A stretch of DNA of 51,595 bases. Origin: a virus. Lineage: Duplodnaviria > Heunggongvirae > Uroviricota > Caudoviricetes. Shown here piece after piece: positions 3,001 to 6,000 of the stretch. A program made the position numbers. Where the stretch lies: IMG/VR virus record IMGVR_UViG_2711768017_000018; one strand, given 5' to 3'. Position 1 is the stretch's first letter; every line of letters begins with the position of its first letter.

Positions 3001-6000
3001 ATTCAGCTAAAACTTTTGTTCAGGAGACTCTGAAAGATACCTGGGAGTCTGCTGACGAGTGGTTTGTTCATTAAGTTCATCATCTCTGGACACCATTCAC
3101 TTGTATTGACTTTAAGATCATTAAATTGTAATAATTCAAAGGGATGGGGCAGGTTTTTCCTCTTGCGCATGCAAGGGCGGCTCTGATAATGAACAGTAAT
3201 ATTTTACTGTTGAGCTTATGCTCACTGATCCTGCCGGGCAGGATGTTCAACGGTTCCAATATATCCTGCCCCTTCCGCTTTTAAAAAGGATCTTTTATGC
3301 ATGACAATATTTGGTTTACATATAAAGCACGTATCCAAGCGCACCATCGACTAGAATGGCTTGAAAAACACTCTCAATTTATCCTCGTTTGGTATGCTAT
3401 ATTGAGTGCGGTACTTTCAATTGTAACGTTGCGATTTCCAAAGGTTCTAGGAGATAATACAGATGTCGTTGCGGCGATACTTTCAGTGGCTCTACTGGGT
3501 ATTTCTCTGATCGTATCTAACCTAGATTTTCGTGGTCGAGCAATAGCCATGAGAAGGAATTATATTGCACTACAGCGACTCTATTTTGACATTACCACCA
3601 GTCAACAGTTATCTCTTGAACAGAAAGAAAAATATTTTAATTTGCTCAATGAGGTTGAGAATCACCGTGACATAGATGATAAAATTTCAAGGGTAACTCA
3701 AGTTGGACTTAAGACGAGGATCCCCACACAAAAAGAAAAAATAATTGTTATTTTATGGATATTACTTCGAATATTTATTACTGCCGCACTTTATATACTC
3801 CCATTAATATATCTTTGGATTGACTATGACTGCAAGCAGAATTTTTAAAAAGTCATTCTCGAAAAAAAATCTTCTAAAAGTATACTCTGAAAAAATCAAA
3901 GAATCAGGAGCGATTGGCATAGATCGGATTCGCCCATCAAAACTTGATTTGACAATAAAAAATGAGATCACTTTCATTTTTGAAAAGGTTAATTCTGGCA
4001 ATTACAAATTTACAGCATATAAAGAAAAATTAATATCTAAAGGCGCTAACTCTACACCCAGACAGATTTCCATACCAACTGCTAGGGACAGAATTACTCT
4101 TAGAGCTCTCTGTGAATGCCTTACGGAAATATATCCTAAGTCCAGATTAAAACTACCACATACAGTAATTGACTCATTGAAAGAAGCATTAAACAACAGT
4201 CTATATGCTGAATATGCAAAAATAGATCTTAAAAGTTTCTATCCTTCAATTGAACATAAATTGATAATTAATGCAATAAAAAATAAAATTAGAAAAAAAG
4301 AAATTAGACAGTTAATAACATCATCATTAATCGTGCCTACTGTAAGTGGAACCACAGGAAGCAAAGGTATCCCTAATAATACCAGAGGAGTACCTCAGGG
4401 ATTAGCGATATCAAACATTTTAGCTGAAATATCACTATCTAATTTCGATGATGAAATCAATAAAATGCATGACATATGGTACATGCGATACGTTGATGAC
4501 ATTCTTATTTTAACACCAAAATATCAAGCAACAAAAATAGCTTCTCATATCATTGATAAGCTTCAATCATTAAATTTAAACCCACATCCATTAAATGAAG
4601 AGAACTCAAAATCCAAAGTAGGCAGCTTGGATGAAAGTTTCAACTTTTTGGGCTACCACATAAAAAATCGAGAATTATTGATAAAACATGAGAGCATTCT
4701 TAGATTTGAGTCATCCTTAGCAAAAATTTTTACTGCATATAGACACGCTCTACTACAAGCTAAAAATAAGCGCGATAAAGAACGAGCTGTTGCATATTGT
4801 CAGTGGAAACTAAATCTTAGAATTACGGGATGTGTGTTTGAAGGTAAACGATTGGGATGGGTATCGTACTTCTCACAAATAACGTCAACAGCTCAACTTC
4901 GAGCTGTTAATCATACGATCAATAATCTTATCCGCCGATTCGGCCTTTCATCAGAAATAAAACCAAAGTCTTTGATTAAAACTTTCTATGAACTCCGCAG
5001 GGGTAGAGCGGAGACTTTTAAATACATACCTAACTTTGACAATCTACATATATCTCAGAAACGAGAAATTGTTTCTATGTGGATAGGGAAAGAGAATGAA
5101 AAAAAACTTAGCAATAGTGAAATAGAGAGAAAATTTAAATTTAAAATTGCGAAATCAGTAAAAGAGCTTGAAGAGGACATTTCAGGGATATCATAGATAT
5201 GTAATCCATTAAATCCTTTATATATAAAGCAATAAACACACTATTTAAATTCACAAATCAGCCGCAGTATCCTGCCATGACAAGTTGCTGCGGCATATCA
5301 CAAAACGATTACTCCATAACAGGGACCGCAGGCCACTCAATATCAGGTGCAGTTGATGTATCAACACGGTTCAGCAACACCCGATACTTCTTCCAGGCTT
5401 CCAGCAACGAGTTTTCTTCCTCCGTTGCGATCTCCAGATCTACAGCATCCTGAAGTGGCGCTATATGCTCACTGGCTACCTGCATCAGGCTGTTTTTTGT
5501 TTCTTCCGCCTCCCGGATCCGGAACAGTTTTTCTGCTTCCGTATCCTTCACCCAGGCTGTGCCGTTCCACTTCTGAAACTCCCCTTCCGGGGATAACCAG
5601 GTAACATTTTCCGGTAACGGACCGAGTTCAGAAATAAATAACGCGTCCCCTGACGCTACGTCATAAACCGTTTTACCCCGATGGTCTTCAACGAGATGCC
5701 ACGATGCCTCATCACTGTTGAAAACAGCCACAAAGCCAGCCGGAATATCTGGCGGTGCAATATAGGTACTGTTTGCTGGCAGACCTGTATGAGGCGGAAT
5801 ATATGCGTCACCTTCACCAATAAATTCATTAGTTCCGGTCAGCAGATTATAAATTTTTATGGTCCGTGGTTGTTCACTCATTCTGAATGCCATTATGCAA
5901 GCCTCACAATATAGTTAAATGCGATGTTTTTGACGGTGTTTTCCGCGTTACCCGCAGCGTTAACGGTGATGGTATGTCCATGTGAACCAATCGCAACGGA

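Follow-up and report, generated by a model that had tools for sequence, protein, structure and literature searches.

What is encoded in the intergenic region at 3075-3296 of the Caudoviricetes record IMGVR_UViG_2711768017_000018, a stretch of 51,595 nucleotides (nt) that we call the window? The region sits between a DinI-family gene (2826-3074) and the gene of a membrane protein of 183 amino acids (aa) (3297-3848), which is followed by a reverse transcriptase (RT) gene, and a preliminary description had proposed that it holds a promoter and a structured noncoding RNA (ncRNA) serving as partner of the RT. We find that 3142-3278 is, with a probability of about 0.93, the ncRNA of a DRT10 (UG17) anti-phage system and the template RNA for its RT. 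The proposal of a promoter-driven, structured RNA upstream of the RT operon was a correct call, and the RNA that it picked out corresponds to the DRT10 ncRNA already published in a 98%-identical system and is not novel as an element (Tang et al. 2025; Sanchez-Nieto et al. 2026). The DRT10 ncRNA is of interest as a bacterial, telomerase-like template RNA that programs tandem-repeat DNA for phage defence.

The module is a DRT10 system, identified as such because the genes downstream of the region code for a SLATT_5 protein and a UG17 RT. This pair of proteins is the defence system that has been named DRT10, and its essential third component is a structured ncRNA of ∼137-143 nt just upstream of SLATT (PMC12632851; 10.64898/2026.04.29.721553). 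The open reading frame (ORF) of the RT comprises 458 codons from a TTG at 3820 and 456 codons from the ATG at 3826, the latter being the start annotated in RefSeq for the RT in identical Escherichia coli loci; from this ATG it overlaps the SLATT gene, which ends at 3848, by 23 nt. Its YVDD active site is intact and its C-terminus reads ...EEDISGIS. When compared with the RT of Eco3DRT10 (OKX54664), 391 of 399 compared residues were identical (98%), with the same length of 458/456 aa and the same terminal serine. The GenBank record of OKX54664 starts two codons too early, and the priming serine S458 of that record is S456 in the corrected numbering (PMC12632851); S456 was invariant in our alignment of 22 homologues. 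All of the DRT10 features that can be read from a sequence were found in the window, namely, a UG17 RT with YVDD, an overlapping SLATT_5 gene, a covarying ncRNA upstream, a loop with the A-B-A' pattern described below, and the C-terminal serine.

Eco3DRT10, from E. coli 703491, has the same order of ncRNA, SLATT, and overlapping RT, and its ncRNA, defined by RNA immunoprecipitation sequencing (RIP-seq), is likewise 137 nt long and contains a basal stem, four hairpins, a template at nt 107-115, and a segment A' (CAAU) at nt 116-119, while the priming serine stands at the end of the RT in both systems (PMC12632851). Experiments on Eco3DRT10 showed that its RT binds the ncRNA and copies it into complementary DNA (cDNA), and that the ncRNA is needed for defence (PMC12632851). 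The fold with its conservation and covariation, the place of the template, and the identity of the two proteins come from our own analysis; for the functional steps (contact between RT and RNA, protein priming, production of the repeats, and the need for the ncRNA in defence) we rely on this 98%-identical system, and by analogy with it the window module would work as follows. An extended -10 sigma-70 promoter (3106-3135) would start transcription at ∼3142, and the RNA would fold into a basal stem (3142-3153 with 3265-3276) carrying the stem-loops SL2 to SL5. The UG17 RT encoded downstream would bind this RNA, prime synthesis from its C-terminal serine S456, and copy the 9-nt template CAACGGUUC (3248-3256) in the loop 3' of SL5, with SL5 marking the boundary of the template. 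The freshly made DNA end would then come off and re-anneal to CAAU (3257-3260) downstream, and repetition of this cycle would yield long single-stranded tandem repeats, (GAACCGTTG)n, with a covalent link to the RT. This cDNA would in turn control SLATT (3297-3848), the membrane effector of abortive infection.

Conserved helices of the RNA

The inverted repeats on which the preliminary description was built are all present. The predicted 5' end of the transcript, GGATGGGGCAGG (3142-3153), is complementary to CCTGCCCCTTCC (3265-3276) at 11 of 12 nt (92%); a short hairpin is formed by AACAGTAA (3192-3199) and TTACTGTT (3204-3211), and a palindrome by ATCCTGCC (3228-3235) and GGCAGGAT (3237-3244). 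Two further hairpins (3160-3177 and 3212-3223) had been missed. The RNA from 3142 to 3296 folds with a minimum free energy (MFE) of -57.2 kcal/mol, compared to -40.6 ± 3.7 kcal/mol for dinucleotide shuffles (z = -4.5), and none of 200 shuffles folded as well. A structured leader was thus correctly foreseen, whereas the length of ∼170 nt given for it was not borne out, the conserved RNA having 137 nt (3142-3278).

We gathered 44 loci from one-genome-per-species contigs by RT alignment and built a covariance model from the five helices of the window fold. In each of the 27 loci from other species with an RT at least 50% identical, the model gave one plus-strand match right upstream of SLATT (52-139 bits, E values of 1e-28 to 2e-9). 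These loci come from Xenorhabdus, Photorhabdus, Buttiauxella, many Pseudomonas and Stutzerimonas, Stenotrophomonas, Bordetella, and one metagenome-assembled genome. No ncRNA match was obtained with this model in 16 alphaproteobacterial and other loci with an RT at most 37% identical (within the range L030-L047), where ncRNAs were not otherwise sought; according to the literature, a DRT10 ncRNA model is effective only inside its own subtype, and this null result agrees with that.

In the alignment of the resulting 28 sequences, 96.3% of the cells form standard pairs, compared to 85.0% in shuffles and 49-56% when the partners are slid, and 24 of 37 pairs show changes on both sides, compared to 16.2 in shuffles. 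Compensatory pairs are present in every helix, and 0 of 500 shuffles reached any of the five covariation measures. Since this alignment had been fitted to the covariance model, we repeated the analysis with structure-blind MAFFT and RNAalifold and recovered the same five helices. The helices made by the inverted repeats have therefore kept their pairing through compensatory changes in 27 other species, which is the outcome of the folding and covariation analysis that the preliminary description had suggested. The plus strand is the coding strand of the RNA because the invariant U-G pairs would turn into C-A on the opposite strand; an RNA from the minus strand, which we also considered, gave only a 25-bit palindromic echo of the covariance model.

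The preliminary description had also suggested that the ggcagg/cctgcc elements could pair in alternative ways, and this part did not hold. Pairing of GGCAGG 3148-3153 with CCUGCC 3230-3235 together with GGCAGG 3237-3242 with CCUGCC 3265-3270 is found in 77.8% of cells in the 28-sequence alignment, compared to 76.2% in shuffles. Of 26 sequences, 11-15 break the inner pairs; changes on both sides occur in 3 of the 12 pairs, where 3.3 are expected. The alternative conformer lies 3.3 kcal/mol above the MFE and makes up ∼2% of the ensemble for the window sequence, and it depends on a longer SL5, a feature that among these sequences was limited to those of E. coli and Xenorhabdus. It is possible on energetic grounds in the window sequence and shows no covariation. 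In the same part of the RNA, a perfect 9-bp inverted repeat, GGGCAGGAT (3236-3244) and ATCCTGCCC (3263-3271), could form a hairpin with precisely the template loop at its tip, at the cost of SL5 and the basal stem; this conformer, 3.3 kcal/mol above the MFE, relies on the longer SL5 and finds no support in covariation.

The region is carried by 188 of 5,426 complete E. coli genomes at 96.8-100% identity. It has no match in Rfam 15 with an E value up to 1 (3075-3296), and none of the 30 RefSeq entries listed among these 188 genomes has it annotated. The coordinates, structure, and template given here could be transferred directly to the matching E. coli genomes; the DRT10 ncRNA appears to be missing from Rfam 15.

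The template loop and its predicted repeat

Eco3DRT10 makes tandem repeats of GAATCATTG, copied from CAAUGAUUC ("A-B") in the loop after SL5, and the next four bases, CAAU (A'), realign the DNA end, with U110, C116, A117, and U119 as critical positions (PMC12632851). When SL5 alone was scrambled in that system, the repeat cDNA was lost completely (PMC12632851). In the window, CAA-CGGUUC-CAA occurs at 3248-3259, 3 nt past SL5. Counting from 3142, the predicted transcription start, reproduces the published numbering of the ncRNA exactly, and the window reads C107-A-A-C110-G-G112-U-U-C115 followed by C116-A-A-U119, which is the published register. Of the 28 aligned loci, 25 show a pattern of (U)CAA...(U)CAA, corresponding to A-B-A' with a period of 9-11, whose B segment varies across species.

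The window template differs from the published one by two transitions, U to C at nt 110 and A to G at nt 112. The published template itself is present, base for base, at the homologous site of E. coli 510016, whose 137-nt RNA departs from that of the window at these two positions alone (3251 and 3253), both in the template. Among the 188 E. coli genomes, the window template was found in 154 and the published template in 34. Since two template bases differ, the cDNA repeat predicted for the window allele is 5'-GAACCGTTG-3' instead of GAATCATTG. The commonest E. coli allele thus carries a template unlike the one that has been studied, and (GAACCGTTG)n is a testable prediction. The identity between A and A' falls from 4 nt to 3 nt, the fourth position becoming a dG-rU wobble, and changes at that fourth position were tolerated in Eco3DRT10 (PMC12632851).

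The MFE structure contains a helix between the linker (nt 38-44) and the template (nt 110-116), for which 78.5% of cells are paired compared to 79.8% in shuffles. This helix has no support from covariation, and the template loop is therefore best drawn open.

It is a speculative and rather unlikely extension of these results that the template is naturally polymorphic between near-identical E. coli systems. If such a polymorphism is selected, the repeat sequence itself would matter, perhaps because the SLATT effector recognizes it, or because single-stranded-DNA-binding proteins or nucleases of the host or phage do. Alternatively, the 8-nt register that A112G creates (see below) would alter the fidelity of the repeat; at similarly low odds, read-through from the LexA-controlled dinI promoter might boost the module in the SOS response in these prophages.

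Table 1. Coordinates of the ncRNA, its parts, and the adjoining promoter and genes in the window
Feature	Position	Strand	Evidence
DRT10 ncRNA, 137 nt (basal stem with four hairpins and template loop)	3142..3278	+	Fold, covariance model, covariation, match to published 137-nt RNA
Basal stem SL1, 5' arm GGAUGGGGCAGG, pairs with 3265-3276	3142..3153	+	9 of 11 pairs compensatory; 97.5% of cells paired
SL2 hairpin CCUCUUGC-GCAU-GCAAGGG	3160..3177	+	7 pairs, 3 compensatory, 95.1% paired; invariant U-G pair
Conserved single-stranded linker CGGCUCUGAUAAUG	3178..3191	+	Near-invariant in 26-species alignment
SL3 hairpin AACAGUAA-UAUU-UUACUGUU (the short hairpin of the preliminary description)	3192..3211	+	8 pairs, 7 compensatory, 96.8% paired
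SL4 hairpin GAGC-UUAU-GCUC	3212..3223	+	4 pairs, 2 compensatory, 97.1% paired
SL5 hairpin AUCCUGC-CGG-GCAGGAU (the palindrome of the preliminary description), putative template boundary element	3228..3244	+	7 pairs, 3 compensatory, 94.2% paired
Template loop GUUCAACGGUUCCAAUAUAU, single-stranded	3245..3264	+	No conserved pairing; A-B-A' pattern
Template A-B CAACGGUUC, ncRNA nt 107-115	3248..3256	+	Same position as published Eco3DRT10 template CAAUGAUUC
Realignment segment A' CAAU, nt 116-119	3257..3260	+	Matches published C116, A117, U119 (PMC12632851)
Basal stem SL1, 3' arm CCUGCCCCUUCC	3265..3276	+	Covariation; inverted-repeat search
Sigma-70-type promoter of the ncRNA, probably of the whole module	3106..3135	+	-35 TTGACT 3106-3111, 18-nt spacer, TG 3127-3128, -10 AATAAT 3130-3135
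Ribosome-binding site AAGGA for SLATT	3286..3290	+	7 nt past ncRNA 3' end; read from sequence
SLATT_5 two-transmembrane effector, 183 aa	3297..3848	+	Pfam SLATT_5 1.3e-28; PADLOC RTasSLATT 1.5e-56
UG17 (DRT10) RT, 456 aa from ATG at 3826	3826..5196	+	PADLOC RT_UG17 1.1e-158, full length; YVDD active site; C-terminal Ser456

Other template RNAs share parts of this architecture. The UG17-A ncRNA of Escherichia sp. E3659 (10.64898/2026.04.29.721553) also belongs to a tripartite module, and has a promoter of its own just upstream of SLATT, a basal stem, needed there for RNA accumulation, and a template loop with two short direct repeats. It differs in having ∼143 nt, in being drawn with six stem-loops, and in its template ACUUAUUACU, which gives 7-nt AGTAATA repeats; neither this template nor the target of its Northern probe occurs in 3075-3296. 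By published description, the DRT9 (UG28) ncRNA likewise presents a template loop in a multi-hairpin RNA to a protein-primed RT (PMC12632851). Its template is poly-U, its products are poly-dA homopolymers, and priming is from a tyrosine, whereas DRT10 uses a 9-nt heteropolymer template and a serine. Telomerase RNA (TR/TER) has in common with the DRT10 ncRNA a short template followed by an alignment segment, a 5' stem boundary, and processive repeat synthesis by realignment of the DNA end (PMC12632851). The DRT10 RNA is, however, much smaller, its primer is the serine of the RT and not a chromosome end, and it serves defence and not end maintenance.

Transcription and rival explanations

The promoter that the preliminary description had seen, TTGACT with an extended -10 element, is present and scored 10/12 plus the TG in a consensus scan. 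In 26 of the 28 loci, a -10-like hexamer (TAGAAT, TAAGAT, or AATAAT, often with a preceding TG) is found at a distance of 10-13 nt upstream of where the model match begins, and the two exceptions carry CATACT and TATAAA at that place. This conservation supports both the promoter and the predicted start at ∼3142. At the other end, the SLATT start codon is 18 nt past the 3' end of the ncRNA in the window and 15-30 nt past it in all loci, with only a ribosome-binding site between (GGAG-type in the homologous loci), and a promoter scan of the window gave no other plus-strand promoter-like site in the interval upstream of SLATT. Since the gap has room for a ribosome-binding site only and no other such promoter is predicted, SLATT and RT probably share the ncRNA promoter, with the ncRNA as a processed or terminated 5' portion of the transcript. 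A construct described as a "locus lacking its native promoter" in 10.64898/2026.04.29.721553 agrees with this predicted co-transcription. In the homologous loci, the sequence directly after the basal stem is often rich in pyrimidines or in U.

Several other readings of the region deserve to be weighed against that of a DRT10 ncRNA. A retron msr/msd RNA, with terminal repeats a1/a2 and branched multicopy single-stranded DNA (msDNA) primed from the 2'-OH of a guanosine, would share with it a structured RNA beside the RT that has paired termini and serves as the RT template; the end-to-end pairing of the transcript is superficially like a1/a2, a likeness that the preliminary description had drawn, and several database records label homologous RTs "retron-type." The best family for the window RT is nevertheless UG17 (1.1e-158), with no retron RT model among the 25 best PADLOC families, and the region has no Rfam match. 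Moreover, the interior of the RNA consists of four short conserved hairpins (4-8 bp) and a 20-nt single-stranded loop in place of a long msd stem, an absence that the preliminary description had itself remarked on. The 98%-identical enzyme primes from its C-terminal serine and not from a branched 2'-5' guanosine, and makes tandem repeats of a 9-nt template by repeat addition and not msDNA (PMC12632851); DRT10 has neither msDNA nor a branching guanosine, the latter not having been searched for in the window. We therefore regard a retron RNA as extremely unlikely, and the a1/a2 likeness does not carry over. It is very unlikely that the region is solely a cis-acting 5' leader (an attenuator, a riboswitch, or a structure sequestering the ribosome-binding site) that tunes SLATT and RT expression. 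Such a role would be in keeping with the short distance from the ncRNA to the SLATT start, which leaves neither room nor a predicted site for a separate SLATT/RT promoter, so that the mRNA most probably begins with the ncRNA structure, and also with the U-run found after the basal stem in many homologous loci. In the published systems, however, a basal-stem mutant regained ncRNA accumulation when the ncRNA was expressed in trans from its native promoter (10.64898/2026.04.29.721553), Northern blots revealed a discrete species of ∼143 nt and RIP-seq revealed RT binding, template mutations altered the cDNA sequence (PMC12632851; 10.64898/2026.04.29.721553 for all three), and the sister allele has already been seen to yield templated cDNA. 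The RNA may act as a leader in addition to its part as DRT10 ncRNA, but this cannot be its sole function. The chance that the region encodes a small protein is practically negligible. An ATG-initiated ORF of 46 codons does span it on the plus strand (3144-3284), but the ATG is missing from 26 of the 28 aligned sequences, those of E. coli and Xenorhabdus being the exceptions, the substitutions track base pairing and not codons, and the ORF would have no upstream ribosome-binding site because transcription is predicted to start 2 nt before the ATG.

A further possibility concerns not the RNA itself but its control, namely, that DinI, ncRNA, SLATT, and RT form one SOS-inducible unit through read-through from the LexA-controlled dinI promoter. 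The preliminary description had raised SOS control on account of a LexA box, and two good boxes (CTGT-N8-ACAG) are found at 2768-2783 and 2796-2811, overlapping a promoter-like site of the DinI-like gene (2762-2791). In favor of such a unit, no plus-strand terminator-like site is predicted between dinI and the ncRNA, and DinI or its remnants precede the module in all three of the E. coli loci examined. In the 27 loci from other species, on the other hand, DinI with LexA boxes was not found with the module, DinI being absent within ∼1.8 kb upstream, while the -10 element of the ncRNA itself is conserved. A read-through transcript would also carry a 5' extension past the basal stem, and the published systems were tested with their native flanks, in papers that report no need for SOS induction. 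A single SOS-inducible unit thus appears unlikely. The LexA boxes of the preliminary description stand, whereas the link to the whole module does not, DinI and the boxes being confined to E. coli loci; an SOS input would be at most a local add-on of E. coli prophages and not part of the system.

For the DRT10 ncRNA itself, some points weigh against the assignment. The functional evidence comes from Eco3DRT10, and the window template differs from the one tested there at two bases, of which A112G gives a competing 8-nt register, GUUC-AACG-GUUC. If the RT reads up to the base of SL5, this register could blur or shift the repeat, and its use would appear as an 8-nt CGTTGAAC periodicity; the published boundary at C107 argues against it. 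The 5' and 3' ends of the window ncRNA are placed by homology and promoter position. Finally, the two published studies disagree on what happens during infection, one reporting less cDNA and the other more first strand (PMC12632851; 10.64898/2026.04.29.721553).

Genomic setting of the module

The window is a prophage integrated beside dusA, in which the gene order is integrase, DinI, ncRNA, SLATT, and RT, followed by tail-fibre genes. The cassettes of E. coli 510016 and E. coli ETEC-2265 adjoin prfC and not dusA. In E. coli 510016 an IS1A insertion splits the SLATT gene while the ncRNA and RT are intact (L002 3223-4551), and in ETEC-2265 the DinI-like gene is frameshifted (L001 2759-2978).

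Downstream of the RT, Rfam IS009 gave two strong matches on the minus strand, at 5352-5550 and 11626-11824 (225 and 218 bits). The first falls within a tail-fibre assembly gene (5309-5893) and the second copy lies ∼6.3 kb further; the window therefore holds two related tail-fibre modules.

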